Origin: Paracoccaceae bacterium
Lineage (GTDB): Bacteria > Pseudomonadota > Alphaproteobacteria > Rhodobacterales > Rhodobacteraceae
Assembly: GCA_965214325.1 (NCBI GenBank)
Contig: CBDCBG010000004.1
Location: 190,843 to 254,842 of the forward strand
Direction of reading: 5' to 3'
DNA: 64,000 bases
The translations under genes and the position numbers were made by a program. Of this stretch, positions 8,975-50,668 are shown piece by piece (the first letter of the stretch is position 1; every line of letters starts with the position of its first letter). A model generated the notes under the pieces. The model searched no databases, was not told the DNA's origin, and saw only the letters and a list, made by a program, of their open reading frames with translations.

Positions 8975-9078
8975 GTAAGCGTTCGGTCGAGCGGTGACGA
9001 CGGTCCGTCCTGACGTCATTTCGGTCACTGCAAATCTGGCACTGGTAACTCGGAATCCAGCATGCTATCGCGTCGCGC

Positions 9079-10985
9079 ATGGAGATGCGCATCGAGGATT
9101 CCGGGACTTCGCCCGTTCCGGACGTTGCTGGCGACGGGCCCCTTTCGTCGTCGCGGCCGGCGGCGTCGGCGCCCGGTCCGGTCGACCGGGAATTCCTTTG
9201 CGAGCGCGAGCGTGTCCGTGCCGATGAGGCGGAAGCCCGCGCGGACGCTGCGGAGGCGCGCTGCGAGGACCTGCGCTGGAGGGAGGTGCGGGCCCGGCAC
9301 CGCGCAAGCAGCCTGGAAACGGCTGTCGAGAGGAACCGGGCGAAGCTGAACGCCGCCCGCGAGGCGGTCAGGAATGTCCGCCGGACGGCGAAGCGCGCCA
9401 TTGCGCTGGAGAAGGAGGTTGCGCGGCTGGGCAGGCTTCTCGCGGAGGCCGGCGTCGATGCGCGGAAGCGTTCCACGGTCATGTCCCTGCGCATGGAGAA
9501 CGCCGCCCTGAAGGCGGAGGCGGGCGATCTGCGCGACAGGGTCGCGGCGCTCGAGGCGCGGAACGACGAGCTTCGTTCGAGCAGGTCCGCGATGTCGAGA
9601 TCGCTGTTCGGCGGCAAGAGCGAGAAGAGGCCGGGGCCGTCGTCGAGGCGCGGGCGCGGCCAGCGGCCCGGGGCGCCCGGCCATGGCCGCACGCCCCGGC
9701 CGGACCTCGAGGAGAAGGAGGAACGGGTGGACCCGCCGGAGGACGCGCGGACCTGTTCCTGCTGCGGCAAGCCCTATGTCGCCAACGGCTCGCATGACTC
9801 GGAGGTCATCGAGATCGAGGTGAAGGCGCACAGGCGGAGGATCGTCCGCCCGCGCTGGCGCCGGGGATGCGACTGCGCCTCCTCGCCGTCCGAGGTGACG
9901 GCGCCGCCGCCGGCGCGGCTGTTCCCCGGCACGGCCTTCGGGACCAGCGTGTGGGCGCTTGTCCTGCACGAGCGCTTCATGTTCATGCGGCCCTGCCGCC
10001 GTGTCGCGGCCTGGCTGACATGCCAGGGCCTGGCGGTCTCGGCGGGGACGCTGGCCGACGGCACGGGCCGCATGCCGCCCCTGTTCGAGCCTCTCCGGGA
10101 GGCGGTCCTCGCGCGCCAGAACGAGGCGGGGCTGCGCCATGCCGACGAGACCGGCTGGCGGATCCAGGCCTTGAGGGAGATCCGGAAGTCGCACCGCGCC
10201 TGGCCCGGACGTCCGTCAGCCATGACGCGGTCCTCTTCCACGTCGACCGCACGCGCAGCGCCGAGGCCGCCGCGAAGCTGTTCGCCGACGCCGCCGGTCC
10301 CGTGCATCTGGTCTGCGACCGCTGCAGCGCCTGCAAGAAGCTGGCGCGCCTGTTGCCCGCAATCGTCATCCTGTGCTTCTGCTGGGCCCATTCCAGGCGG
10401 GATTTCCTGAAGTGCGCGACCGGGCGGCCGCGGCTGGCGGAGTGGAGGGACGAACGGGTCGACCGGATCGCGGGGACCTGCCGGCTGAACGCTGTCCGGC
10501 TCGGCTGCCTCGACCCCGGCAGCGGATCCCGGAAGAAGGGGTTCGAGGCGGCGCAGGCCGAACTGGAGGGTGCGGTCGCCACGCTGTTCGCGGAAGCCGG
10601 GCGCCAGCTGGGGAAGCTTCCGGAGGGGGCGCCGGAGGGCAAGCCCCTGCGCTCGCTGCTCAAGCACCGCGAGGGGCTGTGCGTGTTCCTCGGCCATCCC
10701 GAGGTTCCCATGGACAACAACGTCGCGGAAAGGGCCGTCAGGGGTCCGGCCATCGGGCGGAAGCTCAGCTTCGGCTCCGACAGCGAGGCGGGCGCCCGGA
10801 TGACGGCGGTCATGCATTCGGTCCTCGGCACGGTCGCGAGGAACGGTCTCGACGTCCTGCGCTGGCTCGGGGCGTGGCTTGACGCCTGCGCGGAGAACGG
10901 CGGCCTCCCGCCCGGCGACCTGTCGCCCTGGCTGCCGTGGTCGATGAGCGAGGAGAGAAGGCAGGCCTTCCTGGCGCCGCCGTGA
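9079..10985 (+). pseudogene. IS66-family transposase with internal frameshift (about 10,200)
   Basis: Coiled-coil N-terminus, CxxC zinc motif (CSCCGKPY), ADETGWRIQ, then the frame switches to ...SVSHDAVLFHVDRTRS...CWAHSRRDF...MDNNVAERAVR (IS66 motifs). No slippery heptamer at the shift. Confidence 0.8.
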
Positions 10986-11859
10986 CCGACGAGGTCGAGT
11001 GCCGCTGTCATGGCCATGACTTCACCGTCGCCGAAATGAGGCTGCTGCGCGAACTGGTCGCCACGGAGCCGACCCGGGCGGCCATCGCCCGCGCCTTCTG
11101 CCGCCGCATCGGCTGGCTGAAGCCCGACGGCGGCCTGAAGAGCATGATGGCGAAGGTCGTCATGCTGAAGATGCACCGCGACGGGATCATCGAGCTGCCG
11201 CCGCCGTCCCGGGCGCCACCCGTCCCGAAGCCGATCACGTTCGGGCCGGACACCGAGCCGCCTCCGCTGCTCCCCGTTCCGAAGGCCCTCGACGAGGTCC
11301 GCCCGCTGGATGTCCGGATCGTCAGGAGCGGCACCCGGGCAGGCAGGCTCTGGAACGAGTTCGTCGCCCGCTGGCACTACCTCGGATACACGCGCCTCGT
11401 CGGCGCGCAGATGCGCTACGCGGTCCATGACCGGAACGGCAGGCCTCTGGCCATGCTCGGCTTCTCGACCGCCGCATGGAGGCTGGGCCGAGGGACGCCT
11501 TCATCGGATGGACGCCGGAACTGCGCGAAAGGAACCTCCCGCTCGTGGTCGACAACCCGAGATTCCTGATCCTTCCATGGATGGCGGTTCCGAACCTGGG
11601 GTCCCACATCCTCTCGCTCGTCCGCAGGCGCCTGCCCGAGGACTGGACCGTGCGCTACGGCACCACGCCCGTGCTCTGCGAGACCTTCGTGGAGGTTCCG
11701 CGCCACAGCGGCGGCGTCTATCGTGCGTCAGGCTGGATCCGCGTCGGAACGACCAAGGGGCGCGGCCGCTACGACCGGCACAACAAGGCCGACAAGCCGA
11801 AGAAGGACATCTGGCTCTGCCCGCTCCGGAAGGACTGGAAGCGGACGCTCAACCGCTGA
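10982..11859 (+). pseudogene. DUF4338 (DruA-like) domain protein, frameshifted near 11,480
   Basis: GTG overlaps the transposase stop (GTGA). Homologous to the intact copy 51100..51978 and to the N-terminal half of 37196..39385 (RFLILPWM..NLGSHILSL, ETFVE...GGVYRASGW). One frameshift after AAWRLG. Confidence 0.75.
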
Positions 11860-12047
11860 CCCTCGTCCTGTCCTGTCCGCAGGCCGGATTGCAGCCCGTC
11901 GTCATCGAGGCACGGACGTCGGTCTCGGCGACGCCACCGCAGCGGAAAGCGGGGTCGGCACGATTGCGCATTCAGCGCGGCGGCAGTCAGGAAAGAAAGT
12001 CAGGCAGACAACGAAGACAGCTCGTCACCGCTCGACCGAACGCTTAC

Positions 12048-12477
12048 TGCAAAGGCGGCGAAACGCTTCCTTGGCAAGGCGTTGAAGGACTTGAAAGATT
12101 GGGAGCGACCACGGGTGATCAACACGGACAAGGCCCCGAGCCGTGCTGTCGCCCTGGCCGAACCGAAGGCCGAAATCACGCGCCCGGGCGACGTGCAGCA
12201 TCGTCAGGTCGAATATCTCGACAACATCGTGGAGGCCGACCACGGCAAGCTCGAACAGCTGATCCGCCCGGTGCGCGGGTTCAAGACGATGAAATCGGCT
12301 TGCGCCACGATCAAGGGCTTCGAAGCGATGCGTGCCCTGCGCAAGGGTCAATCCCGCAGCTTCGACCTGACCGGTGACATCAAGGGTGAGGTCCGCATGA
12401 TTGAACGCGCCTTCGGATTGGGCCAATGCGCCCTGACCGAGGCGATGACCATGCTCGAAGGCCGTCCGGCAGCATGA
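12048..12477 (+). pseudogene. IS6-family transposase, C-terminal part
   Basis: Continues AKAAKRFLGKAL... then VINTDKAP..., [43 protein letters not shown], the typical IS6 C-terminus. Confidence 0.8.
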
Positions 12478-26830: not shown

Positions 26831-28291
26831 TCAGGCATCCTGATCGAGACAGTCAACGGCCTTTCCCTTGAGGGCGATCATGATGGCGACGAGCGGGTTG
26901 TATCCGAGCGCGGCCATTGTCCGGAGGTAGCTCGATATGCGGCACCAGGCGTGTGCGAACGCGACGCTTCGGAAGCAGCCCGATATCTTCTGCTTGACCT
27001 TGGCCATCCTGAAGTCGCGCTCCGCCCGGTTGTTCGAGAACGGGGTGTCGGCACGCCTTGTGAAGCGCAGGACGTTCCGTCTCTGGGCGGCGAGGCGTTC
27101 GAGAAGGTTGTGGGCATCGGACCTGGCGACCGGTCCGCGGCGGCCCTTCCGCCTCTTCGGGATCTCGGGCATCTCCTTTCGGCCCTGCTCCAGGATCTCC
27201 CTGTAGCATCGTGCGACTCGCCTGTAGTGGCGCATGGAGAGCCGCCTGTCCGGCCGTCGCATGACCTGCCGCCGCGCGATGAGCAGCAGCTTGCGCATCC
27301 TCTCCGCCCACGGCCAGCCGTTGCTGTCGGTCGCGGCCTGAAGCTCGCGCAGCAAATGGGGGCAGCAGAGCTGATGCTTGCAGTTCGTGTAGGTGAGGTA
27401 CGCCTTCCAGCAGTCGTGGACGATGACGCCTCCGTACCGGGGGATGATCCCGATGTCGTCGATGGCCTCGCATCCGCGCTTCCGGTGCAGCCGCTTGACG
27501 GTGACCGGGCCGCCGGAGCAGACGTGGATCCAGTGGTTCCTTCCGTCCACCCGCAGCGAGGTTTCGTCGACGTTCAGCACGGGCATCGCGAGGAGCTTCC
27601 CGATCGCGGCGGCCTCCCATGTTTCCAGCGCCTGATGCAGGCGCGAGACGAAGCCGAGAAGCGTGGCCTCGGAGAGCAGCCGTCCGGTCGTCGCCTGGAT
27701 CATGGCCGCGGTCCGCTTGAGCGGGACCATCTGCGCGCAGAGCAGGTGCACGGCATAGGCGACGATGCCGGGTCCGTACTGCAGCGGCCCCGGCATGGTG
27801 TCGGGGAACGCGCCCTTGTTCCGGGCGCGGCAGCGCGGGCAGTCCTTGATCTCGGCCTCGACCCGGCGCTCGACGGTCTCGAAGACGATGTCGATCTCGA
27901 CGCGTGCCTCGTGTCCGGAGCACGCGGTTCCGGACAGGTCGTGGCCGCATTGCCGGCACGCGGTGACCGAGCTGGATTCCGTGACGGTGACCGTGCGCAG
28001 GTTGCCCGGTTCCGTCTCCCTCGCCTTCGGCCCCTTGCTGCGGGAGCCCTTGCCGGCGCGCCGCGCGGTCTCGTCCCTGTCCGTCTGCGACGGCGGGAGG
28101 CCGGAGTTGCGCGAGGTCTTCGGCGTCGTCTTCTCGAGGAACACCGCCACCAAGATGTCCAGAAGCAGGAACAGGGCGTCGATCAGCGCGAGGGTTTCGG
28201 CGCCCGCCTCGCCCTTCCGCTTGATGCCGTCGAACCGGGCCCGGCAATCGTCCATCTGCGCGCGCAGCGATGCCCCGTTCACCGTCGGCAT
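26831..28291 (-). CDS. IS66-family transposase (single-ORF type)
   Basis: 486 aa. CRQCGHDL and CPRCRA zinc motifs, VDETSLRVDGRNHWIHV, HQLCCPHLLREL, SNNRAERDFRMAKVKQKISGCFRS. Confidence 0.85.
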   Translation of the reverse strand: MPTVNGASLRAQMDDCRARFDGIKRKGEAGAETLALIDALFLLLDILVAVFLEKTTPKTSRNSGLPPSQTDRDETARRAGKGSRSKGPKARETEPGNLRTVTVTESSSVTACRQCGHDLSGTACSGHEARVEIDIVFETVERRVEAEIKDCPRCRARNKGAFPDTMPGPLQYGPGIVAYAVHLLCAQMVPLKRTAAMIQATTGRLLSEATLLGFVSRLHQALETWEAAAIGKLLAMPVLNVDETSLRVDGRNHWIHVCSGGPVTVKRLHRKRGCEAIDDIGIIPRYGGVIVHDCWKAYLTYTNCKHQLCCPHLLRELQAATDSNGWPWAERMRKLLLIARRQVMRRPDRRLSMRHYRRVARCYREILEQGRKEMPEIPKRRKGRRGPVARSDAHNLLERLAAQRRNVLRFTRRADTPFSNNRAERDFRMAKVKQKISGCFRSVAFAHAWCRISSYLRTMAALGYNPLVAIMIALKGKAVDCLDQDA

Positions 28292-29491: not shown

Positions 29492-31867
29492 CAATGGCAT
29501 TGAGTTTGGCCGGAACAGATTTTCCTGATTTCCGCGACCGGCCAAAGACCATGTCCTGAGGCGTTTGCTTGCGCGCGCCGGAATCTTTCGTTCAGGCCTG
29601 CCTCATGGATCGGCCCGGTTCAATGTAGCGTCGAATCAGTCCGTCCCGAGGGAGGCCGCGATGGATCCGCGCATCGAGAACCTGGAGACCACCACCTTTT
29701 TCGGCAAGCGGCTGACCCGCAGGCAGATCGCGGTCATGCAGGAGATGGTCGAGCTGTTCCCGAAGGACAGCCGGCGGGAGCTGGCCCGCACGCTGTGCGA
29801 GAACTTCAACTGGCACACGCCGTCCGGAACCTGCAGGGAGCAGTTCTGCCTGCGGGTTCTCGAAAAGCTGGAGACGCTGGGCATCCTGACCCTGCCGGAA
29901 CGGCGCGAGACGGGCGGGCGGCGCGGGCCTTCCGCCCGCACCGAAGCCGGCGAGCCCGGCGAGCCGGTCGATGCGCCGCTCCGGGACCTGGAGCCGGTCA
30001 CGCTGGAGGTCGCCGCCGACGGGCGGGACCTTGCCGAATGGACCGAGCTCGTGGACCGCTGCCATCCGCGCGGCTACAGGTCGCCCATCGGCTGCCACCT
30101 CGCGTATTTCGTCCTCGACGGCAGCGGCCGCCGCCTGGGCTGCCTGATGTTCGAGAGCTCCGGGTCGCTTCCGGTCCGCGACGCATGGATCGGATGGACG
30201 GAGCGCCAGCGCGAGGACGGCCTCCGGCGGGTTGTCCGGCACAGCCGCTTTTTGGTGTTTCCATGGGTCCGTGTCAGGAACCTGGCCTCCCGGTCGCTGT
30301 CGCTGGCGACCCGCCGGGTCGCCGACGACTGGCACCGGCGCTGGGGCGTGCGCCCGCTTCTGGCGGAGACGTTCGTCGACCCGCAGGAGCAGGAGGGCAG
30401 CTGCTACCGCGCGGCGGGATGGAAGGGGATCGGCGCCACCGCCTCCCGCGCGCCCAAGGACGTGTACGTGACCGAGCTGGAAACGGACGCCCGGGCCGCG
30501 CTGCGCGGCGAGCGGAAGGAAGCGGGAGGCAAGCCGGCCCGCGCCCCCGAAAGCGCCCGGACGGTCGCCGGGATGTGGAGCGCGGTCGCCGCCGCCGCCG
30601 CCAGGACGGCCGAGCGCCACGACCGCGAGTGGCGGGTGCGCCGGCGACTGATCGGCACCTTCCTGGTCGTCCTCTTCGTCCTCCGCCTGGTGTTCGGGAC
30701 CGGGCGCAGCTACGGCGATGCCCTCGCCGAGATCTGGGAGAACGCGCGCAGCCTGGGGGTGGCGCTGCCGCAGGAAAGCCCGGTGACGCCGTCGGCGATG
30801 TCCCGGGCGCGCGCCAAGGTCGATCCGCAGGTCTTCAGGGACCTCCACCGGGAGGTCCTCGCCCGGGCTCCGGACCGCCCGCTCTGGAAGGGGCGGCGGG
30901 TCTTCGGCGTCGACGGCGCCAAGGTCAACCTGCCGCCGCCGCTTGCTGATGCCGAGACTGCCGGCCGACTTCGGCCTGTACGCCGACACCAACGAGCGGC
31001 GCGCCGCCGTCGAGCACCTCAGGACCCTGTCCGCCGGGGACGTGGTCGTCCACGACCGGGGCTGTTTCTCCTGCGAGATGCTTCTCGCCCATGTCGTCCG
31101 GGGCCAGGACGCCGTGTTCCGGCTCAAGCGGGACGCGAACGCGGAGACCGTCGCCTTCCTCGCCGGCCCGCTGGAAGAGAGGCTGGTCTGGATCCGGCCC
31201 GACGACAGGGCGCTGGCCCGGCTGAAGGCCCGCCACCCCGGCGCGGCGTTCGGGCCGCTGAAGCTTAGGCTGGTCCGCTACGCCGCCGGCGACACCGTCT
31301 TCGCCCTCGGCACCACCTTGGCCGCCGAAGACGGCTTCACCGTCGAGGACCTGGCAGGCATCTGCAGGGCGCGCTGGCGCATCGAGGAGATGTACAAGAC
31401 CGCGAAGTGGTTCCTGGCCGTCGAGTCCTTCCGCTCCGAAAGCGAGCGCGGCGTCCTCCAGGAACTCTACGCCAACTTCGTCATGGTCACCGCGACCCGC
31501 CTCATGACCAACGAGATCGACGGGGAGATCAACGCCTCGCCGGACGGCAGGCCGCCGAAAAGGGTGAACTTCAAGCACGCCGTCGCCGCCGTCTTCCGCA
31601 ACTTCGAGGCCCTCGCGCTCGTCCAGGCCGATGCCGTCGCCGAAACCGTCGCGCGGATCGTCGACGACGTCGCCGCCCTCTGGCAGCGGGAACGGCCCGG
31701 CCGCAGCTACCCAAGGGTGTCGTTCAAGCCGAAAAGCAAATGGGCACGGAAGGGGAAGGTCGCCGCAGCAAGCTGAGCCGCTTCCACCCGAAAGACCGGC
31801 CTTCCGGTGCAGGACCACCCACGTCCCGTTAAGTCAACAACCCTGATTCCTTAAGTCAATGCCATTG
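29492..31867 (+). mobile_element. IS4-type element with DUF4338-DDE fusion transposase, copy 1 (deleted/frameshifted)
   Basis: Termini CAATGGCATTGA... / ...CAATGCCATTG. 10-bp TSD GCCGGCCGCG at 29482..29491 and 31868..31877. About 82 bp shorter than copy 2. Confidence 0.8.
29661..31776 (+). pseudogene. DUF4338-IS4 DDE fusion transposase, inactivated by an internal deletion near 30,950
   Basis: Colinear with 37196..39385 up to GVDGAKVNLPPPL. About 82 nt are then missing and the frame shifts. The C-terminal part resumes in ORF 30943..31776. Confidence 0.8.
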
Positions 31868-34588: not shown

Positions 34589-36502
34589 GTTATCGCGGTA
34601 GGGAACCGGGTTACCCCGGTCCCCCCGCTCAGATCCCGGCGTGCGCGTTAACGCACCGGGCTCCTCCCTTGGGTCCTCACGACGAGCCGTTGGCTCGGCC
34701 ACGGGTGGCGGATCCCGACTTTGGGCCAGTGGACGGCGGTCAGGAGATCGATGTCCTCCCATTCCGTGCGGTCCCTTTGGGACCGACGCCGGAGGGCACG
34801 CCAGAGCAGCCGCTTGCAGAGGTGAACGAACCTCTCCAGATGTCGGCCACTCCCGGGGACAGCGTAGTGGTTGAGCCAGCCGTTGATGACCCTGCCCAGC
34901 CACGCAGCCGTGTCGTGCCGGTTGTCGTGCCACCGCTCGCGAAGCCTTTCCTTGATCCGCCGCAAAGTGCGGTTGACCCGTTTCCGGGACGGCTTGCGTC
35001 CGACCCTGAACCTTCCCTTCCTCGACTCGTCGCAGAAGTGCGTCATGCCAAGGAAGTCGAACGTCTCCGGCTTGCCCTGCCCCCGGTTCCGGCGGTTCGC
35101 CTTCGCGAACCGGCCGAACTCGATGAGCCGGGTCTTGTCCGGATGCAGTTCCAGTCCGAACAGGGCCAGCCTTTCGCCCAAGTCCCGGAGGAAGCGCTTC
35201 GCGTCGCCCTCGTGCTGGAAGCCGCACACGAAGTCGTCCGCATGGCGGACGATGATCGTGTCGCCTCCGGCAATCCGCTTGCGCCATGTGTTGTGGAACC
35301 AGACGTCGAGCACATGGTGCAGGCAGACGTTGGCGAGGATCGGGGAAACTGTCCCGCCTTGCGGAACGCCCCTGCCCGTGTCCGTCCAGTCGGTCCCCTC
35401 CATGACGCCGGCGTCGAGCCACTTGACGATCAGCCGCATGACCCGCACGTCCCCGATGCGTCTCTCAAGCATCCGGACCGGATGGTCCCGCCCGAGATTG
35501 TCGAAGAACCCGCGAATGTCGGCGTCAACGATCCGGCTGACCTTCCGCCGTTCCATTCCGACCGCAATGGCGTCGAGCGCATTGTGCGTCCCCCGCCCCG
35601 GTCGGAACCCGTGGCTGAAGCCGAGGAACTCCGTCTCGTGGATCGGCACCGGAATCGTGTCCGTCACCGCCCGCTGAAGTATCTTGTCCTCCAGCGAGGC
35701 AATGCCGAGCGGTCGCTGCCCCCCGTCCTCCTTGGGCATGTATGCCCGCCGGGACGGCGGCGCGCGGTACGCCCCCCTGTGCACGCGCCCGTGCAGGTCG
35801 ATCAGCCGATCTTCCAGCCCTTCGGCGTACATCTCCCATGTCACGCCGTCCACGCCAGCGGCCACGTCACTCTTGAGCGAGTGAAACGCCTCCGCCAGCG
35901 CGTCCGTCGTCACATGGTGCAGGAGCGCCACGAGACGCTCTTCCGGGTTCCTCGTTGCAGCCTTTCGTATCCGGTCGGCCGCCTGTGACCCGCTTCCCCG
36001 TTTCTGCGCACGGCGCGAGCTTTGGCCTCCCGGATTCCCCTTGGGTCCGGCCCTTCGCTCCCCCGGCTCCGCTGACCCGGAAGGGCCGTTGTTCGCCGGA
36101 TTCTTCGCTACCATGGCCGAATCTGATTTCTTCAGATCGTTCATCTCCGTTTCGGATTCCTCCTTCGCTTTGCGGCCCCGCACGACAGCGGGGCGAACTG
36201 AAGACCTCCCAGGTCCCGGTGGACTGCTTCGACGCGTGCCTTGGTTCCCAGACCCCGCGGAGCCTCTCCTCGCCTCACCAAACCGGCTCGAAGAGTGTTG
36301 CCTTCGGCCCGTCTGACAGCCTCGGCACTCCAGTTGTGTCAGTTTTCGTGGCTCAGTCGCCCGGCCCACGCCTGCCGCTTGCCAACGCTTCACCTGCCGC
36401 CTCGCGACGACCGGCGCATGGTTCGCGGAGAAAGTGGCTGGCTGACCTCTCTTTCTGCCGGGACTTTCACCCGGCGACATTCCACCAGTTAGCCTGGCGC
36501 AC
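34589..36502 (-). mobile_element. group II intron A1, full length (1,914 nt)
   Basis: 5' GTGCGCCAGGCTAACTGGTG (compare Ll.LtrB GUGCGCCCAGAUAGGGUG). RT/maturase ORF in domain IV. Domain V GAGCC..GGATC spans the ORF stop. Domain VI hairpin with a TA bulge, 3' end ...CGCGATAAC. Confidence 0.8.
34648..36144 (-). CDS. group II intron reverse transcriptase/maturase (no endonuclease domain)
   Basis: RT blocks RPLGIASLEDKILQ, FRPGRGTHNA, DADIRGFFDN, GVPQGGTVSPILAN, RHADDF. Maturase X domain GWLNHYA. No HNH/En motif. ATG 36144. Confidence 0.9.
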   Translation of the reverse strand: MNDLKKSDSAMVAKNPANNGPSGSAEPGERRAGPKGNPGGQSSRRAQKRGSGSQAADRIRKAATRNPEERLVALLHHVTTDALAEAFHSLKSDVAAGVDGVTWEMYAEGLEDRLIDLHGRVHRGAYRAPPSRRAYMPKEDGGQRPLGIASLEDKILQRAVTDTIPVPIHETEFLGFSHGFRPGRGTHNALDAIAVGMERRKVSRIVDADIRGFFDNLGRDHPVRMLERRIGDVRVMRLIVKWLDAGVMEGTDWTDTGRGVPQGGTVSPILANVCLHHVLDVWFHNTWRKRIAGGDTIIVRHADDFVCGFQHEGDAKRFLRDLGERLALFGLELHPDKTRLIEFGRFAKANRRNRGQGKPETFDFLGMTHFCDESRKGRFRVGRKPSRKRVNRTLRRIKERLRERWHDNRHDTAAWLGRVINGWLNHYAVPGSGRHLERFVHLCKRLLWRALRRRSQRDRTEWEDIDLLTAVHWPKVGIRHPWPSQRLVVRTQGRSPVR

Positions 36503-36539
36503 CACACGTCCTGACATCGCCCCTTGCGACAGGCAACTT

Positions 36540-37021
36540 TCATGAGGCGGGTTTCCCCGCCCTGGCATTGTTCCCGGGCAATTCGTAGACCATGCGCAGG
36601 CCGGTTCCGGGGAAGATCGTGCATGTCTGGTTGAGCTCTTCGAGCAGTCCCGCGACGGCGGCGTCGCCCGCATCGCTTGCGGTGTCGAGGATGCCGTTCT
36701 CCGGTTCGGGGAAGATGTCGGCCTCCGACCGGAACAGCTCCGCGAGGGGACGGCGGGGGCGTTGCCTCGCGCCCTGCGCGTCGGCGACGGCAGGCATCAT
36801 CCGGGTCTCGGCGCGGCAGGCGATCATCCGGATGACGTCGAGGAGCAGCCTCTCGCCGGAGGGCAGCGCGTCAAGCCACTCGCCCTCGCCGAGTTCCGCG
36901 ACCTTGACGTGCGTGGGCAGCTCCCCGCGCCGGAGCTTGAGCGCCTCGCGCTCGGCGTCGAGCGTCCCGATCTCGGCCTTCAGCCTCTCGGCGGACCTGG
37001 CGGCCGTGCCGGACGGCCCGC
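36540..37021 (-). pseudogene. unclassified DDE transposase, C-terminal fragment (interrupted by the IS4-type element)
   Basis: Reads on from 39480..39839 across the insertion: ...LTGGGP|SGTAARSAERLKAE...LLLDVIRMIACRAETRMM...TGLRMVYEL. IS family not recognised. Confidence 0.45.
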
Positions 37022-39479
37022 CAATGGCATTGAATTAGGCCCGATCAGATTTTCCTGATTTTCGCGCCTTTTCAAAGTCCATGTTTTTTGGGCGTTTCCG
37101 CGCTCGCGCGGGGATCTTTCGTTCGGGCTTGACTCATGGAGCGGATCGGTTCATCATAGCATCGACCCAGTCCGTCCGTCCCGAGGGAGGCCACGATGGA
37201 TCCGCGCATCGAGAACCTGGAAGCCACCACCTTTTTCGGCAAGCGCCTGACGCGGAGGCAGATCGCGCTCATGAAGGAGACGGTCGAGCTGTTCCCGAAC
37301 GACAGCCGGCGGGAACTTGCCCGCACGCTGTGCGAGAACTTCAACTGGCACACGCCGTCCGGAACCTACAGGGAGCAGTTCTGCCTGCGGGTTCTTGAGG
37401 AACTGGAGAGGCTGGGCATCCTGACCCTGCCGGAGCGGCGCGAGACGGGCGGGCGGCGCAACGCTCCCGCCCGCACCGAGGCCGGCGAACCCGGGGAGCC
37501 GATCAACGCGCCGCTCCCGGCCCTGGAGCCGGTCACGCTGGAAATCGCCGCCGGCGGACGGGATCTGGCGGAATGGAACGAGCTCGTGGACCGGTACCAT
37601 CCGCGCGGCTACATGTCGCCCATCGGCTGCCATCTCGCGTATTTCATCCTCGACGCTCACGGCCGCCGCCTGGGCTGCCTGATGTTCGAGAGCGCGGGCG
37701 CGCTGCCGGTTCGCGACGCGTGGGTCGGATGGGACCGGCGGCAGCGCGACGCGGGCCTCGCCCGCCTTCTCAGGAACAGCCGGTTCCTGGTGTTTCCATG
37801 GGTCAGCGTCAGGAACCTTGCCTCCCGGTCCCTGTCGCTGGCGGCCCGACGGGTCGCCGACGATTGGCACCGGCGCTGGGGTGTGCACCCGCTCCTTGTG
37901 GAGACGTTCGTCGACCCGCAGGAGCAGGAGGGCAGTTGCTACCGCGCGGCGGGATGGACGGAGATCGGCGCCACGGCCTCCCGCAGCGTACCCAAGAACG
38001 TGTACGTGCTCGAGCTGGAGACGGACGCCCGGGCCGCGCTGCGCGGCGAGAGGAAGGAGACAAGACGCAGGCCGGCCCGCGCTCCGGAAAGCGCGCGGAC
38101 GGCCGCCGGGATGTGGAGCGCGGTCGCCGCCGCCGCCGCCAGGACGTCCGAGCGCCACGACCGCGAGTGGCGGGTGCGCCGCCGACTGATCGGCACCTTC
38201 CTGGTCGTCCTCTTCGTCCTCCGCCTCGTGTTCGGCACGGGGCGCAGTTACGGCTCAGCCCTCGCCGAGATCTGGGAGAGCGCCCGCAGGATGGGCGTGA
38301 CGCTGCCGCAGGACCGCCCGGTGACGCCGTCGTCGATGTCCCGGGCGCGCGCCAAGGTCGACCCGGAGGTCTTCAGGGAGCTTCACCGGGAGATCCTGGC
38401 CGAGGCCCCTGACCGCCCGCTCTGGAAGGGACGGCGGGTCTTCGGCGTCGACGGAGCCAAGATCAACCTGCCGAGGCCGCTCGTGGATGCCGGATACGCG
38501 ACGCCGGGCAAGCATGCACACTACCCGCAGGGTCTGGTCAGCTGCCTTTACGAACTGGAGCCGCGGCTGCCGTTCGACTTCGGACTGCACGCCGACACCA
38601 ACGAGCGCCGCGCCGCAGCCAGGCACCTCAAGGCCCTGTCCGCCGGGGACGTGGTCGTCTACGACCGGGGCTACTTCTCCTACGAGATGCTTCTCGCCCA
38701 CGTCGTCCGGGGCCAGGACGCCGTGTTCCGGCTCAAGCGGGATGCGAACGCGGAGACCGTCGCCTTCCTCGCCGGCTCGCTGGACGACAGGACGGTCGAG
38801 ATCCGGCCCGACGGCAAGGCGCTGGCCCGGCTGAAGGCCCGCCACCCAGGTGCCGCGTTCGGGCCGCTGAAGCTGAGGCTGGTCCGCTACGCCGCCGGCG
38901 ACACGGTCTTCGCCCTCGGCACCACGCTCACGGAAGACGACGGCTTCCGCGTCGAGGACCTGGCCGCGATCTATCGGGCGCGTTGGCGTCTTGAAGAGAT
39001 GTACAAGACCGCCAAGTGGTTCCTGGCCGTCGAGTCCTTCCGCGCCGAAAACGAGCGCGGCGTCCTGCAGGAACTCTACGCCAGCTTCGTCATGGTCACC
39101 GCCACCCGCCTGATGACCAACGAGATCGACGGGGAAATCAACGCAGCGCCCGGGGACGGACACCCGAAGAGGGTGAACTTCAAGAACGCCGCAGCAGCGG
39201 TCTTCCGCAACTTCGAGGCCCTCGCGCTCGCCCAGGCCGACGCCCTCGCCGAAACCGTCTCGCGCATCGTCGACGACGTCGCCGCACTCTGGCAGCGCGA
39301 AAGGCCCGACCGCAGCTATCCGAGGATGTCACGCAAGCCCAGAAACAAATGGTCGCGAAAGGGGAAGGTCGCCGCCGCCAGCTGAACCACGCACGACAAG
39401 CGGAATACACGCCTTCCGCTGCTGGACCTTCCACGTCCCGTTAAGTCAACAGCGCCGATTCCTTAAGTCAATGCCATTG
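37022..39479 (+). mobile_element. IS4-type element with DUF4338-DDE fusion transposase, copy 2 (intact, 2,458 bp)
   Basis: Same termini as copy 1. 10-bp TSD GACGGCCCGC at 37012..37021 and 39480..39489. Confidence 0.85.
37196..39385 (+). CDS. fusion transposase: N-terminal DUF4338 (DruA-like) domain plus C-terminal IS4-family DDE domain (729 aa)
   Basis: N-terminal half aligns with the stand-alone DUF4338 proteins (RFLVFPWVSVRNLASRSLSL, ETFVDP...GSCYRAAGW). C-terminal half has DGAKINL, VVYDRGYFS and the YRARWRLEEMYKTAK (Y-2-R-3-E-6-K) IS4 signature. Confidence 0.85.
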   Translation: MDPRIENLEATTFFGKRLTRRQIALMKETVELFPNDSRRELARTLCENFNWHTPSGTYREQFCLRVLEELERLGILTLPERRETGGRRNAPARTEAGEPGEPINAPLPALEPVTLEIAAGGRDLAEWNELVDRYHPRGYMSPIGCHLAYFILDAHGRRLGCLMFESAGALPVRDAWVGWDRRQRDAGLARLLRNSRFLVFPWVSVRNLASRSLSLAARRVADDWHRRWGVHPLLVETFVDPQEQEGSCYRAAGWTEIGATASRSVPKNVYVLELETDARAALRGERKETRRRPARAPESARTAAGMWSAVAAAAARTSERHDREWRVRRRLIGTFLVVLFVLRLVFGTGRSYGSALAEIWESARRMGVTLPQDRPVTPSSMSRARAKVDPEVFRELHREILAEAPDRPLWKGRRVFGVDGAKINLPRPLVDAGYATPGKHAHYPQGLVSCLYELEPRLPFDFGLHADTNERRAAARHLKALSAGDVVVYDRGYFSYEMLLAHVVRGQDAVFRLKRDANAETVAFLAGSLDDRTVEIRPDGKALARLKARHPGAAFGPLKLRLVRYAAGDTVFALGTTLTEDDGFRVEDLAAIYRARWRLEEMYKTAKWFLAVESFRAENERGVLQELYASFVMVTATRLMTNEIDGEINAAPGDGHPKRVNFKNAAAAVFRNFEALALAQADALAETVSRIVDDVAALWQRERPDRSYPRMSRKPRNKWSRKGKVAAAS

Positions 39480-39839
39480 GACGGCCCGCCCCCGGTCAGG
39501 TCGGCGACGCGGTTGCGCAGCGTGCCGAGCCTGTTCCGCATCCGGTTGATCCGGCGGTCCAGCTCGCGCCGGGCCGGATTGACGACGCGCGCCTCCGGAT
39601 CCTGCTCGGCGAGGCCGTGCACCGGCAGCGCGTCGTGGCTGAACTCGTCGCGCATGTACTTGAAGAAGCTCTCCTGCGCCCACCGGGAGAACAGCGCGCC
39701 TGCGGCCTGCTCCGTCGGCAAGCCGAAGTCGGTGGTCACGAGCGGGACCTGCCGGCCCGAGTCCAGCAGGCGGCGGATCTGGCGAACCCCGGGCCCCTTG
39801 CCCAGCCTGATCCGCCGCTCGGCGAGCCGGACCTCGGCG
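39480..39839 (-). pseudogene. unclassified DDE transposase, middle fragment (5' end removed by IS6 copy B)
   Basis: ...VPLVTTDFGLPTEQAAGALFSRWAQESFFKYMRDEF... (RW.QE..FK DDE-E region). Confidence 0.45.
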
Positions 39840-40758
39840 GGCCCTGTTGCAAAAACCGCTCTCAGCTGTCCTTGTGAGCGAGGCAGCGGTAGATTGCGCT
39901 TTTGGAGGCTCTCCCACGACCCATGACTTCAAGTGGCGGCACTTCCGGGGCGAGATCATTCCGCGGGCCGTTCGGTGGCACTGCAGATATGGCGTCAGCT
40001 ACCGTGACCTCGAGGAAATGCTGGAAGAGCGCGGCGTCGCGGTGGACCATGCCACCATCCATCGCTGGGTGCAGGCCTGCGCGCCGGAAATCGAAGGGCG
40101 CCTGCGCCGGCACTGTCGCCCAGGCGGACTTTCGCGGTCCCGGCGCGTGGACGAGACCTGCATCAAGGTCAGAGGGAAACGGGCGTATCTGTACCGCGCG
40201 GTCGACGGCCGTGGCGACGCCATCGACTTCCACCTGTCGCAGACCCGCAATGCCAACGCCGCCAAGCGGTTCCCGGGCAAGGCGCTGCGCGGGTGCAAGG
40301 AGCGGGAGAGGCCCGTCGTGATCAACACCGGCAAGGCGGGATGCCACGGCCAGGCCATCCGGGAGTCGAAGCAGGCCGGCAAGTGTCCCCCCGAGACCGG
40401 ACACGGGCAGGCGAAATGCCTCGACAACGTCGTCGAGGCCGACCATGGCAAGCTCAAGCGCCTGATCAAGCCGACCCTTGGATTCAAGTCAATGAAGACG
40501 GCCTGCGCCACGATCAAGGGCTTCGAGGCGATGCGTGCCCTAAGGAAGAAGCAGGCCAAGGCCTTCCAGCTCCAGCAGGGATCAGGGGTGAAGTGCGTCT
40601 TGTCGAACGTGCCTTCGGGGTCGGGCCGGAGATGATGAGCGAGTTGATGTCGCTGCATGGAGCGGAGCTTGAAAAGATCGCGATCCAGCAAGGATCTTGA
40701 AGAAAGACGGAACCAGACCAAACCCCCGGCAACTCCGGCAAATTCTTGCAACAGAGCC
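39840..40758 (+). mobile_element. IS6-family element, copy B (decayed)
   Basis: IRs GGCCCTGTTGCAAAA / TTGCAACAGAGCC. Near-identical to copy C. No TSD. Confidence 0.8.
39916..40700 (+). pseudogene. IS6-family transposase with lost start codon and C-terminal frameshift
   Basis: The ATG of copy C is ACG here (cc acg acc cat gac). The frame diverges after AKAFQLQ (1-nt indel near 40,580). Confidence 0.8.
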
Positions 40759-42987: not shown

Positions 42988-43144
42988 GACGGGTATATAC
43001 GGCATTGCCGTATCCTTGACAAGGGGGAGGCGCGGCGCGGCCTGGGAATTCTCCCGACCATGTCTTGCCCGCACCGCGCCGGAAGGTCCCTTCCGGGAGT
43101 GTCCTCCGGGGTCACGGGAAATTTCGGGTCCATCCCGACAAAGG

Positions 43145-45060
43145 GTGCGCCAGGCTAACTGGTGCGAGTGCAGCGGGTGAGAGTCCCGCAGGAAGGAAAG
43201 GTTAACCACCGACTTTCACCGCGAGCCGTGCGCCGGGCACCGTGAGGTGTCAGGTGAAGCGTCGGCAGCGGCATGTGCGGGCCGGGCGATTGAGCCTCGA
43301 AATGGGATTGATCGGATGCGCCGAGACTTTCCTTTGGGTCGAAGGCAACACCCATCAGCCGATATGGTGAGGCGAAATGGGGCATCCCGGGGTCAAAGAA
43401 CCATGGCACGTACAGAAGCATTCCACCGGGACCTGGGAGGTCTTCAAGTCGCCCCGCAGTCGTGCGGGGCCGCAGCGGAAAGGAGGGGAAACCCAAAGCC
43501 AATGACGGACGGCTTGAAGAAGTCAGACCCGTCCATAGTAGCTTTGAAACCAGCGAACAAAGGGCGGCAACGCTCAGCGGAGTTGGCGGAGCCAAGGGAC
43601 GGGGCCGAGGGAAATTCGGGAAGCCGAAGCAGGCGCCGCGCGCAGAAGCGGGAAAGCCTGTCACAGGAGGCCGACCGGATACGGCAGGCTGCAAAGAGAA
43701 ACCCGGAAGAGCGTCTCGTGGCGCTCCTGCACCACATCACGGTGCCCGTGCTGGCGGAAGCGTTCCACTCGCTCAAGAGTGACGTGGCCGCCGGCGTGGA
43801 TGGCGTGACGTGGGAAATGTATGCCGAAGGGCTGGAAGATCGCCTGATCGACCTGCACGGACGGCTGCACAGGGGAGCGTACCGCGCGCCGCCGGTTCGG
43901 CGGGTCGAGATACCCAAGCCGGACGGCGGAACACGACCGCTCGGCATCGCCACACTGGAGGACAAGATCGTTCAGAAGGCGGTGGCGGACATGATTCTGG
44001 TACCGATCTACGAGTCGGAGTTTCTCGGGTTCAGCTACGGGTTCCGACCGGGGCGCGGGGCGCACAACGCGCTCGACGCGCTCACGGTCGGAATTGAGCA
44101 GCGCAAGATCAACTGGATTCTTGACGCGGATATCCGCGCATTCTTCGACAATTTGGACCGGGGCTGGATGATTCGGTTTCTGGAACATCGCATCGGAGAC
44201 AAGCGCCTCATCCGCCTCATCACCAAATGGTTGAACGCTGGCGTCATGGAGGGGACCGACTGGACGGACACGGGCAGAGGCGTTCCTCAGGGGGCGATTG
44301 TCTCGCCGGTCCTGGCTAACGCCTACCTGCACTACGTGTTTGACCTCTGGGTGCACAAGTCATGGCGCAAACGGAAGGGGAAAGGCGACATGATCGTTGT
44401 TCGCTACGCGGACGACTTCGTGGTTGGCTTTCAACACCAGTGGGAAGCGGAGAGCTTCCTGAGCGATCTGAGGGAAAGGCTCGCCCGTTTCGGGCTGGAC
44501 ATGCACCCCGACAAGACCCGGCTCATTGCGTTCGGACGGTTTGCGAAAGCAAGACGGAAAGAACGCGGGCAGGGCAAACCGGAGACCTTCGACTTTCTGG
44601 GCATGACGCACTTTTGCGTCACCACCCTGCGAGGGAAATTCCGGGTCGGACGCAAGCCGTCCCGAAAACGGGTGAGGCGGACACTCAGGCGCATCAAGGA
44701 AGAACTGCGCAAACGTCGGCACATGGGCAAACACGAAGTGGCGCGATGGCTCGGAAGAGTCATCAACGGGTGGCTGAACTACTACGCCGTTCCCGGCACT
44801 TCAAAAGCCCTGTCGAGGTTTGTCATCGCGGTCAAGCGGCTGCTCCTGCGCGCCTTGCGCAGACGCTCGCAGAAAGACCGCACTGAATGGTCGGCACTGG
44901 CTCGCCTAATCGGAGCCCACTGGCCAGAACCCACCATCCGTCACCCGTGGCCCGGCCAGCGTCTCGCCGTCAACACCCAAGGCAGGAGCCGGATGCGTTA
45001 ACGCGCACGTCCGGATCTGTGCGGGGGGACCGGGGTAACCCGGTTTCCTACCGCGATTAC
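43145..45060 (+). mobile_element. group II intron A2, full length (1,916 nt)
   Basis: 5' GTGCGCCAGGCTAACTGGTGCGAG. Domain V GAGCCGGATGCGTTAACGCGCACGTCCGGATC spans the RT stop codon. Domain VI GCGGGGGGACCGGGGTAACCCGGTTTCCTACCGC. 3' end ...GATTAC. Confidence 0.8.
43502..45001 (+). CDS. group II intron reverse transcriptase/maturase (no endonuclease domain)
   Basis: RPLGIATLEDKIVQ, FRPGRGAHNA, DADIRAFFDN, GVPQGAIVSPVLAN, RYADDF, GWLNYYA. AGGAGGGG RBS. Paralogue of 34648..36144. Confidence 0.9.
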   Translation: MTDGLKKSDPSIVALKPANKGRQRSAELAEPRDGAEGNSGSRSRRRAQKRESLSQEADRIRQAAKRNPEERLVALLHHITVPVLAEAFHSLKSDVAAGVDGVTWEMYAEGLEDRLIDLHGRLHRGAYRAPPVRRVEIPKPDGGTRPLGIATLEDKIVQKAVADMILVPIYESEFLGFSYGFRPGRGAHNALDALTVGIEQRKINWILDADIRAFFDNLDRGWMIRFLEHRIGDKRLIRLITKWLNAGVMEGTDWTDTGRGVPQGAIVSPVLANAYLHYVFDLWVHKSWRKRKGKGDMIVVRYADDFVVGFQHQWEAESFLSDLRERLARFGLDMHPDKTRLIAFGRFAKARRKERGQGKPETFDFLGMTHFCVTTLRGKFRVGRKPSRKRVRRTLRRIKEELRKRRHMGKHEVARWLGRVINGWLNYYAVPGTSKALSRFVIAVKRLLLRALRRRSQKDRTEWSALARLIGAHWPEPTIRHPWPGQRLAVNTQGRSRMR

Positions 45061-45224: not shown

Positions 45225-46144
45225 GGCCCTGTTGCAAAAACCGCTCTCAGCTGTCCTTGCGAGCGAGGCAGCGGTAGATTGCGCTTTTGGAGACCCTCCC
45301 ATGACCCATGACTTCAAGTGGCGGCACTTCCGGGGCGAGATCATTCCGCGGGCCGTTCGGTGGCACTGCGGATATGGCGTCAGCTACCGTGACCTCGAGG
45401 AAATGCTGGAAGAGCGCGGCGTCGCGGTGGACCATGCCACCATCCATCGCCGGGTGCAGGCCTGCGCGCCGGAAATCGAAAGGCGCCTGCGCCGGCACTG
45501 TCGCCCAGGCGGACTTTCGCGGTCCCGGCGCGTGGACGAGACCTGCATCAAGGTCAGAGGGAAACGGGCGTATCTGTACCGCGCGGTCGACGGCCGTGGC
45601 GACGCCATCGACTTCCACCTGTCGCAGACCCGCAATGCCAACGCCGCCAAGCGGTTCCCGGGCAAGGCGCTGCGCGGGTGCAAGGAGCGGGAGAGGCCCG
45701 TCGTGATCAACACCGGCAAGGCGGGATGCCACGGCCAGGCCATCCGGGAGTCGAAGCAGGCCGGCAAGTGTCCCCCCGAGACCGGACACGGGCAGGTGAA
45801 ATGCCTCGACAACGTCGTCGAAGCCGATCACGGCAAGCTCAAGCGCCTGATCAAGCCGACCCTTGGATTCAAGTCAATGAAGACGGCCTGCGCCACGATC
45901 AAGGGCTTCGAGGCGATGCGTGCCCTAAGGAAGAAGCAGGCCAAGGCCTTCCAGCTTCAGCCCGGCATCAGGGGCGAAGCGCGTCTTGTCGAACGTGCCT
46001 TCGGGATCGGGCCGGAGATGTCGAGCGAGCTGATGTCGCTGCATGGAGCGGAGCTTGAAAAGATCGCGATCCAGCAAGGATCTTGAAGAAAGACGGAACC
46101 AGACCAAACCCCCGGCAACTCCGGCAAATTCTTGCAACAGAGCC
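45225..46144 (+). mobile_element. IS6-family element, copy C (intact)
   Basis: IRs GGCCCTGTTGCAAAA / TTGCAACAGAGCC. Intact transposase. No TSD. Same orientation as copies A and B. Confidence 0.85.
45301..46086 (+). CDS. IS6-family transposase
   Basis: [41 protein letters not shown]...[20 protein letters not shown]...[16 protein letters not shown]. 261 aa. Confidence 0.9.
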
Positions 46145-48852: not shown

Positions 48853-50330
48853 TCACCCCTTTCCCAGGGCGGGTTGAGGGTCATGCAGTTCGATCATTTT
48901 GGCGGCATTTCCGGCGAGCGCGATCTGGATGGCGACGAGAGGGTTGTATCCGAGAGCCTCCATTGAGCTCAGGTAGCTCGAGATCCGGCACCAGGCGTGG
49001 GCGTGGAGTTGTGTCCGGAAGCATCCCGACACCTGATCTTGACCTTCGCCATGCGGATCTTCCGCTCCCCGGCATTGTTCGTGAAGCTGACGTCCGGGTC
49101 GCCCATGAAGCGCAGGACGGACCCTTCGTGCTTGACGAGGCGCTCATGGAGGTTGTGTGCATCGGACTTCGCGATCCGGCCGCGTTTTCCTTTCGGCTTC
49201 GGCGGGATGACGGGCAACTCGTTGCCCCCCTGGGTCAGGATGGTCCGGTAGCGCCTGCGCACGGCCGTGCGCCCGTCCTCGGGCAGGGTCTTGGTGTCGC
49301 TCCTGTTGACCCTGTGGCAGGCCTCGCGCAGCAGCCTCTTCATCAGGCGCGCCCAGCGGTAGCCGTTGGAGTCGACGACGAAGGTCAGCTCCCGCAGGAG
49401 GTGAGAGCCACAGAGCTGATGGCTGCACTGGTCGTAGGCGAAGTACGATGCCCAGCAGTCGTGGACCAGGGTGCCTGTGCAGCGGGGGATGATGCCGATG
49501 TCCTCGATCGCCTCCTTTCCGCGCTTGCGGTGCAGGAACTTCAGGGTCAGGGACCCGTCGGTGACGACATGGAGCCATTGGGTTCTGCCGTCGACCCGGA
49601 AGCCGGTCTCGTCGGCATGCAGGGCCGGGCGTTCCAGCAGCTGTGCGATGGCGGCGTGCTCCCATGATGCGAGGGCGTCATGAAGGCGGCGCACGCAGCC
49701 CAGGCAGGTGGCTTCGGAGAGCCTGAGGCCCGAGATCGCCTGCACCAGCGCGACGGCCCGGCGCAGCGACAGCATGTGGGCGCCCGGCAGGTTGACGACG
49801 AAGGCCTGGAGGCCGGCGCCGTACTGCAGCGGGCCCGGCATGTCGTCGGGGAACCGGCCCTTGGTGCGGGCCCGGCAGTCCGGGCATTCCTTGACCTCGG
49901 CCTCCACGCGGCGCTCGACGACCTCGAACACGATGTCGTGCAGGACGCGACGTTCCCGGCCGGCGGGGTCGACGCCGGACAGGTCGGCGCCGCATGTGTC
50001 GCAGGCCTCGACGGCGACCGTCTCCTCGACGGTGGTCTTCCGGAGGTTGTCGCCCGTCTGCAGGTTCGGCTTCGCGCCCTTGCCGCTGCTGCCGGCGCGC
50101 CGTGCGGTCCCGTCCCTGTCCGTCTGCGACGGCGGGAGGCTGGAGTTCCTCGATCCCTTGCGGGTCGTCCTTTCCAGCAGGACGGCGATCAGCACGCTCA
50201 TCAGCGTGATCAGCATCGCGAACATCGCGTCGGCTTCCGCCGACACCTTGCCGGCCTCGCGCAGCGTCTTGATCCGCGCCTTTGCCGCCTCGAACTCGTC
50301 GCGCAGCGACGCCGCGTTCACCGTCGCCAT
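48853..50330 (-). pseudogene. IS66-family transposase with C-terminal frameshift
   Basis: Colinear with 26831..28291 until AKVKI. The expected ...VSGCFRTQLHAHAWCRISSYLSSMEALGYNPL continues in another frame and ends at a TGA inside the IR. Confidence 0.75.
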
Positions 50331-50668
50331 CACCCGGCCTCCACCGCGAGCCGCTCGCCCGGGGGCGTCGCGCGGCAGCGGCGCTGCGACCTGCGCGTCG
50401 ACTGCACGCAGGGCGGCTCGCGGCCCTGGAAGTCGAAGCCGGACAGGAAGCGGCGGGCGCAGCCATGGCGGAGCTCGACGGGGCAGTCCCGTCCGAAGCC
50501 GTCGGTCGCCCGGCGGTCCAGGCCGATGCCGCGCTGCGCGGGCGGCTTGCGCTTCATGATCGCGCCGCCGCCCAAGCGCGTTTCCAGACATGCGGAACGA
50601 GGCGGCATGAGGCTCACGATGGCCTGGCAGAGCCCCGTCGTCGCCTTTGACCCGTACCATGCCCCCAT
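50330..50668 (-). pseudogene. Dam-like methyltransferase remnant (internal deletion removes the DPPY region)
   Basis: MGAWYGSKATTGLCQ... aligns with 28291..28953, but the segment containing DPPY is missing (about 290 bp shorter). The same TGATG overlap with the transposase start is kept. Confidence 0.7.

Follow-up and report, generated by a model that had tools for sequence, protein, structure and literature searches.

We analyzed a 64,000-nt stretch of a Paracoccaceae bacterium genome (GenBank assembly GCA_965214325.1, contig CBDCBG010000004.1, positions 190,843 to 254,842; this whole stretch is called the window, and all coordinates are counted from its first nucleotide). At 37022..39479 on its plus strand lies a complete insertion sequence (IS) of the IS4 family, whose single open reading frame (ORF), 37196..39385 (+), encodes a protein of 729 amino acids (aa) in which Pfam and NCBIfam recognize a DruA-like module followed by an IS4-family transposase. 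The module, ~290 aa long, turns out to be a portable accessory of transposons: six or more unrelated families of DDE transposases have it, as an N-terminal fusion, a C-terminal fusion or a coupled gene. Its identity and its association with transposases are solid. Its predicted fold is that of the GNAT acyltransferases, and the residues conserved in it resemble those that matter in Mom, the DNA-modifying enzyme of phage Mu.

The N-terminal ~300 aa of the fusion had been proposed, from inspection of the ORF translations, to be colinear with the stand-alone DUF4338 proteins of the window, and this was borne out. Pfam family PF14236 (DruA, formerly DUF4338) covers aa 125-261 (E=1.6e-24, 87.1 bits, cut-off 27). 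BLASTP aligns aa 13-264 of the fusion with aa 24-277 of the stand-alone ORF 51100..52023 (-) in a single colinear alignment, with 33% identity over 256 aa (E=3e-40). The two blocks that the original prediction had picked out, RFLVFPWV..NLAS and ETFVD..YRAAGW, are among the most conserved columns in an alignment of 116 homologues.

The C-terminal half is the IS4 DDE domain it was said to be. NCBIfam model NF033592, ‘IS4 family transposase’, is matched by aa 329-640 (38180..39115, +) from model position 23 to 331 of 332, with 163 bits (cut-off 115). Inside this core, Pfam DDE_Tnp_1 (PF01609) matches aa 411-632 (E=1.7e-15, 57.7 bits, cut-off 23), and a weak Nterm_IS4 match at aa 325-396 stands ahead of the DDE domain. 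The candidate catalytic triad is D419 (38450), D490 (38663) and E600 (38993), and the YREK signature of the IS4 family is present as Y593, R596, E600 and K607. IS4 transposases without the module are 38% identical to the fusion over aa 350-723. The two halves are joined by an Arg/Ala-rich linker, aa 284-328 (38045..38179, +), which is predicted to be disordered: its predicted local distance difference test score (pLDDT) falls from ~75 at aa 281-290 to ~50 at aa 291-305, and its conservation is low in the 116-sequence alignment. Taken together, the comparisons show that the C-terminal ~400 aa amount to a whole IS4 transposase, to which the first ~300 aa have been added. Since the NF033592 model is matched nearly end to end, IS4 relatives exist without the module, and other fused transposases retain their end-binding domains, the module does not replace end recognition.

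The fusion is widespread. Homologues of the 729-aa protein fall into 828 clusters at E<=1e-5, and the best 120 of these are 43-99% identical to it, are ~735 aa long and nearly all carry both PF14236 and PF01609; where a source name is given, it is ‘IS4 family transposase’. More than 100 protein clusters share the fusion. High-GC DNA yields long spurious ORFs, and versions of the module and transposase as two genes exist, so that a frameshift, an assembly error or ORF calling might be suspected of having joined two genes here. We rule out this artefact, and give it next to no probability, because the same single ~735-aa ORF is found in more than 100 independent clusters, at 43-99% identity and from many assemblies, with conservation that spans both halves.

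A profile of the module reached far beyond the IS4 fusions: at E<=1e-3 it matched 12,066 representatives of clusters made at 50% identity, and at E<=1e-30 it still matched 1,957. The best 148 of the 12,066 were scanned with Pfam, and partner domains were counted among the 69 long representatives in that set. DDE_Tnp_1 is the partner in 24, Tnp_DNA_bind (Tn5-type) in 11, Dimer_Tnp_Tn5 in five, DDE_Tnp_IS66 in three (with the module C-terminal, in proteins of 810-883 aa), DDE_Tnp_ISAZ013 in two, and DDE_3 (IS630 type) and DDE_Tnp_1_assoc (ISAs1 type) in one each; Transposase_mut (IS256 type) is found in one further representative among the 148. The Tn5-like fusions keep the end-binding Tnp_DNA_bind domain as a strong match. 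Stand-alone members keep similar company: one representative (P0340) adjoins an IS66 transposase gene and another (P0263) an ISAs1-type gene, which it overlaps by 4 nt. The association of one domain with both IS66-type and IS4-type transposases inside the window had been taken to argue for a functional link to transposition; that argument is supported, and its base is broader outside the window.

Two loci show other arrangements. In a Logan contig (SRR22387949, 147..1642) a DruA-like gene lies upstream of an ISAs1-type DDE_Tnp_1_assoc gene with a 4-nt overlap, the reverse of the gene order in the IS66-type elements. On plasmid pTs485 of Thiodictyon syntrophicum (NZ_CP020372.1, 282572..287344) a split DUF2235 gene contains a DUF4338 ORF and, on the other side of an inserted integrase/IS91 pair, a gene for an IS4-family transposase; the arrangement appears to be a two-gene form of the module and IS4 transposase.

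The element itself is 2,458 bp long, and its borders are given by its inverted repeats (IRs) and target site duplication (TSD). The left IR, CAATGGCATTGAATTAGG (37022..37039, +), pairs with the reverse complement of the right end; the right IR (39461..39479, -) reads CCTTAAGTCAATGCCATTG on the plus strand and CAATGGCATTGACTTAAGG as its reverse complement, so that the terminal IRs are 18-19 nt. The 10-bp TSD, GACGGCCCGC, was read directly at 37012..37021 and again, identically, at 39480..39489 (neither copy has a strand). A second, decayed copy of the element, ~87% identical, lies at 29492..31867 (+) with a 10-bp TSD of its own, GCCGGCCGCG, and homology between the two copies stops at the IS borders; the IRs and 10-bp TSDs claimed for the element are therefore confirmed in two copies with different TSDs. 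The second copy is dead because a 71-bp deletion in the DDE domain, just past the first catalytic Asp, shifts its frame.

Excising 37022..39479 together with one TSD repairs the reading frame (VADLTGGGPSGTAA) of a transposase gene on the minus strand, split into 36500..37021 and 39490..40000, that matches PF21804 (Transposase_29; E=8e-32), which means that a second mobile element hosts the IS. The nearest public relatives (80-85% identical in protein) occur in several copies per genome in metagenome-assembled genomes of Paracoccaceae and have the same termini. The left terminus is also found in the second copy and in loci L013-L018, and locus L014 has a perfect 10-bp TSD, GGCCGCCTCC. Membership in the IS4 family goes with TSDs of ~9-13 bp that differ from copy to copy, as GACGGCCCGC, GCCGGCCGCG and GGCCGCCTCC do; all TSDs seen are GC-rich with a GGCC or CCGCC core. 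We conclude that 37022..39479 is an intact, recently mobile IS4-family insertion sequence. The evidence for mobility is indirect: it is suggested by multiple copies with different flanks, both in the window and in the Paracoccaceae metagenome-assembled genomes.

The right end of the element holds an exact 9-mer, TTAAGTCAA, twice within 39441..39471 (+), at 39441-39449 and 39463-39471, 22 bp apart, with the outer one inside the right IR. The pair is also present at the right end of the second copy (31829-31837 and 31851-31859), and the left end has a single, imperfect copy. The 9-mer has eight matches in the window against 1.9 expected. The duplicated 9-mers could be subterminal protein-binding sites.

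The module's other setting in the window is an IS66-family element, present twice. The copy at 50912..53984 (-) is 3,073 bp long, with perfect 26-bp IRs (GTAAGCGTTCGGTCGAGCGGTGACGA) that start GTAAGCG and an 8-bp TSD, TCCTGACC; the copy at 8975..12047 (+), also of 3,073 bp and 99.2% identical, likewise has perfect 26-bp IRs, with the 8-bp TSD TGCAAAGG. The transposase ORFs match Pfam DDE_Tnp_IS66 (PF03050) and the DruA-like ORF lies inside the IRs. With this domain, these IRs and an 8-bp TSD, it is a bona fide IS66-family element. The stand-alone DruA-like gene, 51100..51978 (-), encodes 292 aa and matches Pfam DruA with E=1e-36 and 126.9 bits (cut-off 27); it is intact in the minus-strand copy only and frameshifted in the other. 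Its GTG start overlaps the TGA stop of the transposase gene (GTGA, 51978-51975), and a relative (L001) has an ATGA overlap at the equivalent place. Such a 4-nt overlap of start and stop points to translational coupling of the DruA-like gene to the IS66 transposase.

This coupled arrangement is also recurrent. The 292-aa protein has 1,817 homologous clusters, of which the best 120 are 69-94% identical, with a protein of ~293 aa. Twelve loci that differ in their flanks were located for two of the stand-alone homologues; the gene directly upstream has an IS66 domain and the 4-nt overlap in 10, and in the remaining two the transposase gene is broken up. Within the window, a frameshift near 10205, common to both copies, breaks the IS66 transposase into two ORFs, 443 and 372 aa long, that overlap; in relatives the transposase is a single ORF of 632-785 aa. 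A programmed frameshift was considered and rejected, there being no slippery motif at the site, and the frameshift is probably a mutation shared by both copies. Neither tnpA nor tnpB was found in the 3,073-bp element, which holds only the split transposase and the DruA-like gene; the same is true of loci L001-L012.

The Pfam name invites a reading of the module as a gene of the Druantia defence system. We rejected it, because the PADLOC DruA model does not match the fusion (it matches the stand-alone protein weakly, E=9.8e-6, 22.9 bits), no druBCDE neighbours were found, and the sole partner of the domain, which is enclosed by IS borders, is a transposase. In 14 related loci the neighbours of the DruA-like gene are transposases. 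We found no published mechanism for DruA in the searchable literature. Among the publications found there that mention DUF4338 none concerns transposons and nothing ties the family to Mom; a search for ‘Mom-like’ with ‘transposase’ returned nothing relevant, and a Paracoccus mobilome paper contains no description of the module. A review of the IS4 family does not mention such an N-terminal extension (PMC2266710). The IS4 and IS66 families and PF14236 are thus known, and what is probably new is an accessory enzyme module on ordinary IS families, undescribed in the searchable literature.

An AlphaFold2 model of the module, built with 24 homologues, has a pLDDT of 86. In it a small domain (aa 11-75) is followed, after a spacer of low confidence, by an alpha/beta domain (aa ~110-283); the tail toward the transposase is also of low confidence. 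The small helical domain, aa 1-80 (37196..37435, +), is predicted as a beta-hairpin with three helices, has a pLDDT of ~85-91 over aa 11-80, is colinear with the N-terminus of the IS66-linked protein and might bind nucleic acid. The original prediction had called this start winged helix-turn-helix-like, and that description found no support: with aa 1-92 predicted alone, Foldseek gave no significant match in the PDB, the best E being 0.87 and the hits a scatter of winged-helix-like proteins.

The larger domain, aa 110-283 (37523..38044, +), is the core of PF14236 and has, by comparison of its model with Foldseek, a GNAT fold. The top Foldseek matches in the PDB are all GNAT acyltransferases, among them AAC(6')-Ib, SpeG and GCN5 (probability 1.0, E down to 2e-5, target-normalised TM-score ~0.6), and the predicted model has the GNAT order of elements, beta1-alpha1-alpha2-beta2-4-alpha3-beta5-alpha4-beta6-7. 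By sequence, a profile of the DruA-like family has no match among all PDB sequences even at E<=10. DUF4338 had been assigned as a GNAT domain by the Aravind group (PMC10853773). The best Foldseek matches among the viral proteins of BFVD include one from a giant virus, 469 aa long (E=7e-9 over 258 aligned columns), and numerous myovirus proteins (~400-560 aa) whose annotation is ‘homing endonuclease’ or ‘endonuclease-like’, so that a GNAT module of this sort may also be attached to other nucleases of mobile DNA.

Conservation was read from the alignment of 116 homologues and from one of the 148 diverse representatives. The motifs conserved among diverse members are RYHxLGY (with H135), RDxWIGW (173-179, an insertion between beta3 and beta4), NxRFL (R196), PWVxVxNLAS (S210), ETFVD (E236, D240) and CYRAAxW (Y249). 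By inspection, the loop after beta4 is (V)xNLAS(R/K) throughout the family and not the Q/R-x-x-G-x-G/A loop that holds the coenzyme A (CoA) pyrophosphate. In divergent members the strongest conservation is in residues of the GNAT active-site region, not in the helical domain.

This pattern bears on whether the module is an enzyme. It could instead be non-catalytic, a GNAT scaffold that is no longer an enzyme and serves in additional DNA binding, targeting or oligomerisation, for example by binding the TTAAGTCAA repeats or by choosing targets; the original prediction had proposed a role of this kind, with the N-terminal domain binding the IRs. The 9-mers duplicated at the right end, the GC-rich TSDs with their common cores and the weak, non-significant winged-helix resemblance of the helical domain all fit such a role. 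It is at odds with the placement of the strongest conservation, which lines the active-site region rather than the helical domain, and with the end-binding domains that the transposases keep for themselves. IR binding is for the latter reason not judged the likeliest role of the N-terminal domain, and a non-catalytic module appears quite improbable.

The GNAT enzyme that the conserved residues recall is Mom of phage Mu, which takes glycine from Gly-tRNA(Gly) and attaches it to the N6 of adenine in double-stranded DNA (PMC13219725). In Mom, R111 and S124 are essential, R151, D149, H58, Y59, Y159 and W48 matter, and a helix-turn-helix (HTH)-like insertion at 175-209 is essential for momylation; the paper mentions neither Druantia, DUF4338 nor transposases (PMC13219725). 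Among PHROGs, the IS66-linked protein matches one family only, phrog_1384, ‘Mom-like DNA modification protein’ (E=1.4e-5); for the fusion module the Mom-like family is one of three weak matches (E=0.023), with an unannotated family at E=0.021. The Pfam Mom family, PF25680, has no match in the window proteins at E<=10. It has sub-threshold matches in 23 of the 148 representatives (best E=1.5e-4, 21.2 bits, cut-off 27.1) and is the only recurrent family there besides DruA and the transposase domains.

With a Mom profile made from Mu Mom and 107 homologues, hhalign aligned module aa 97-288 with Mom 10-225 over 169 colinear columns (P=0.0018, marginally significant). The alignment pairs Mom H58/Y59 with H135 (Y in the consensus), R111 with R196, S124 with S210, D149 with D240 and Y159 with Y249; by position, and in our own reading, W48 pairs with W127. 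Spacing between the paired residues agrees within one or two residues, and the counterparts R196, S210, H135(Y), D240 and Y249 are at least 90% conserved or invariant. Together the Mom-like conserved residues in the fusion are W127, H135, R196, S210, E236/D240 and Y249. Mom R151 has no counterpart, Q242 standing opposite, and the HTH-like insertion falls in a gap. We treat the relationship to Mom, seen so far in sequence comparisons, as a specific lead and not as family membership.

The GNAT domain is probably an active transferase, because its invariant residues sit where GNAT enzymes do their chemistry and mirror the catalytic set of Mom. Its repeated tethering to, or co-translation with, transposases that are cis-acting and scarce suggests that its substrate probably lies within the transposase-DNA complex. 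We propose that the module, tethered to or co-translated with a cis-acting transposase, would covalently modify nucleic acid, with DNA bases as the likeliest substrate, in the target held by the transposase or in the region of the transposon ends. The donor would be an aminoacyl-tRNA or an acyl-CoA, and the modification might serve to mark the transposon DNA or shield it, or to regulate or time transposition. We put the chances that the module is such an accessory transferase, acting on DNA at transposase-bound ends or target, at about even.

Several points weigh against this proposal. The similarity to Mom is below curated thresholds everywhere, hidden Markov model-to-sequence scores between the two families are just 8-14 bits, the hhalign probability is 15%, and the Mom structure (8bv8) is absent from the best 50 Foldseek matches in the PDB and in BFVD. 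Mom's essential R151 and its HTH-like insertion are unmatched in the module. The helical domain has no significant structural match, and binding of DNA by the modelled module is unproven. A transposase is made in tiny amounts, which would fit local action and would be poor for broad DNA modification. Finally, the domain could use acetyl-CoA and act on protein.

That last alternative, an acetyl-CoA-using protein N-acetyltransferase that tunes transposition by acetylating the transposase or a host DNA-architectural or replication factor, draws on the best structural matches, which are CoA-dependent (AAC(6')-Ib, SpeG and the protein acetyltransferase HP0935), and on the alpha4 motif CYRAAGW, which in our reading resembles the GNAT motif B, xYxxxGF. 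It is hard to square with the sequence families: no Pfam acetyltransferase family matches the window proteins at E<=10 or any of the 148 relatives, the beta4-alpha3 loop is NLAS(R/K) and not Q/RxxGxG/A, and the only recurrent remote family is Mom, which is not an acyl-CoA user. We consider a protein acetyltransferase unlikely.

Where the enzyme acts is the issue in a further alternative, that the module is a passenger. As cargo it would be a Mom-like anti-restriction or conflict enzyme acting globally across the host replicon, or on DNA bound for transfer, and aiding survival of the IS and its carrier in horizontal transfer with no role in transposition. In Mu, also a DDE transposon, the rightmost gene is mom and serves that very purpose; DruA of Druantia and the N-terminal domain of DndF, both from conflict systems, come from the PF14236 family as well; and the IS66-type module, being a separate protein, could diffuse. 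Repeated in-frame fusion to cis-acting, low-abundance transposases, however, tethers the enzyme and ill fits modification of a whole replicon, and translational coupling ties even the stand-alone gene to the transposase. A passenger role therefore seems to us somewhat unlikely.

A wider form of the DNA-modifying transferase that we favour would take in Druantia. The DruA/DUF4338 proteins would then be Mom-like transferases that modify DNA bases from an aminoacyl-tRNA or another activated acyl donor, would have been captured repeatedly by DDE transposons of many families as a means to mark or shield the DNA that their transposase handles, and would in type I Druantia form the self-marking component, the counterpart of the DruM methylase of type II. 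We hold this extension to be rather doubtful.

The usual view is that transposases need only DNA-binding and DDE domains, to which some families add an ATPase or an RNA guide. If a conserved transferase module does accompany six or more transposase families, it would represent a new kind of accessory function in transposons. Being small, abundant and easily tested, the transposon versions offer a handle on DruA in type I Druantia; the Mom alignment points to the residues and to a chemistry, base modification, and Mom-like DNA modification, if true, would also explain DruA. Present labels do not reveal the connection: Pfam and defence-finding pipelines say ‘DruA’ and NCBI says ‘IS4 family transposase’, and neither shows that the family, in the part sampled, is largely transposon-borne.

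The window is a mobile-element graveyard of ISs and group II introns. An IS6-family transposase gene (8633..9013 and 12082..12477) is interrupted by the IS66-DruA copy at 8975..12047; the downstream half of this gene matches DDE_Tnp_IS240 and the upstream half has no Pfam match; related full-length IS6 copies lie at 39840..40758 and 45225..46144 (97.7% identical). The minus-strand IS66-DruA element is adjoined by a further IS66-family transposase ORF, 48969..50834 (-), of 621 aa (PF03050, E=4e-36), to which region 26857..28130 is 71% identical; neither has a DruA-like gene. Rfam gave six group II intron matches (RF02005, RF02003 and RF00029), at 23548-23764 (-), 33466-33643 (-), 34355-34527 (-), 36243-36467 (-), 43180-43402 (+) and 44984-45057 (+). 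A reverse transcriptase/maturase ORF lies at 34648..36624 (-), with a 78% identical copy at 43144..45057.

Among known systems, DruA of type I Druantia (PADLOC DruA1) belongs to the same Pfam family, PF14236, which the module matches well above threshold; that DruA sits in a druABCDE operon with the DruE (DUF1998) helicase, whereas the module sits inside an IS. The companion element resembles the IS66 family (tnpA-tnpB-tnpC, with ISBst12-like single-gene forms) in its GTAAGCG IRs, 8-bp TSD and PF03050 transposase, and differs from it in having, instead of tnpA and tnpB, a DruA-like gene that overlaps the transposase stop codon. The element at 37022..39479 shares with the IS4 family (NF033592) a YREK DDE transposase, short IRs, a 10-bp TSD, a single ORF, multiple copies per genome and the weak Nterm_IS4 match, but its transposase is ~300 aa longer and the element is ~2.46 kb rather than ~1.4-1.6 kb. 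Compared with Mu Mom (PF25680; PDB 8bv8), the module has the RDxWIGW two-helix insertion and a separate N-terminal helical domain in place of an HTH-like insertion. It is like Mom in its predicted GNAT fold, in the order and spacing of the paired residues, in having no Gly-rich CoA loop and, as mom is in Mu, in being encoded at the end of a DDE transposable element.

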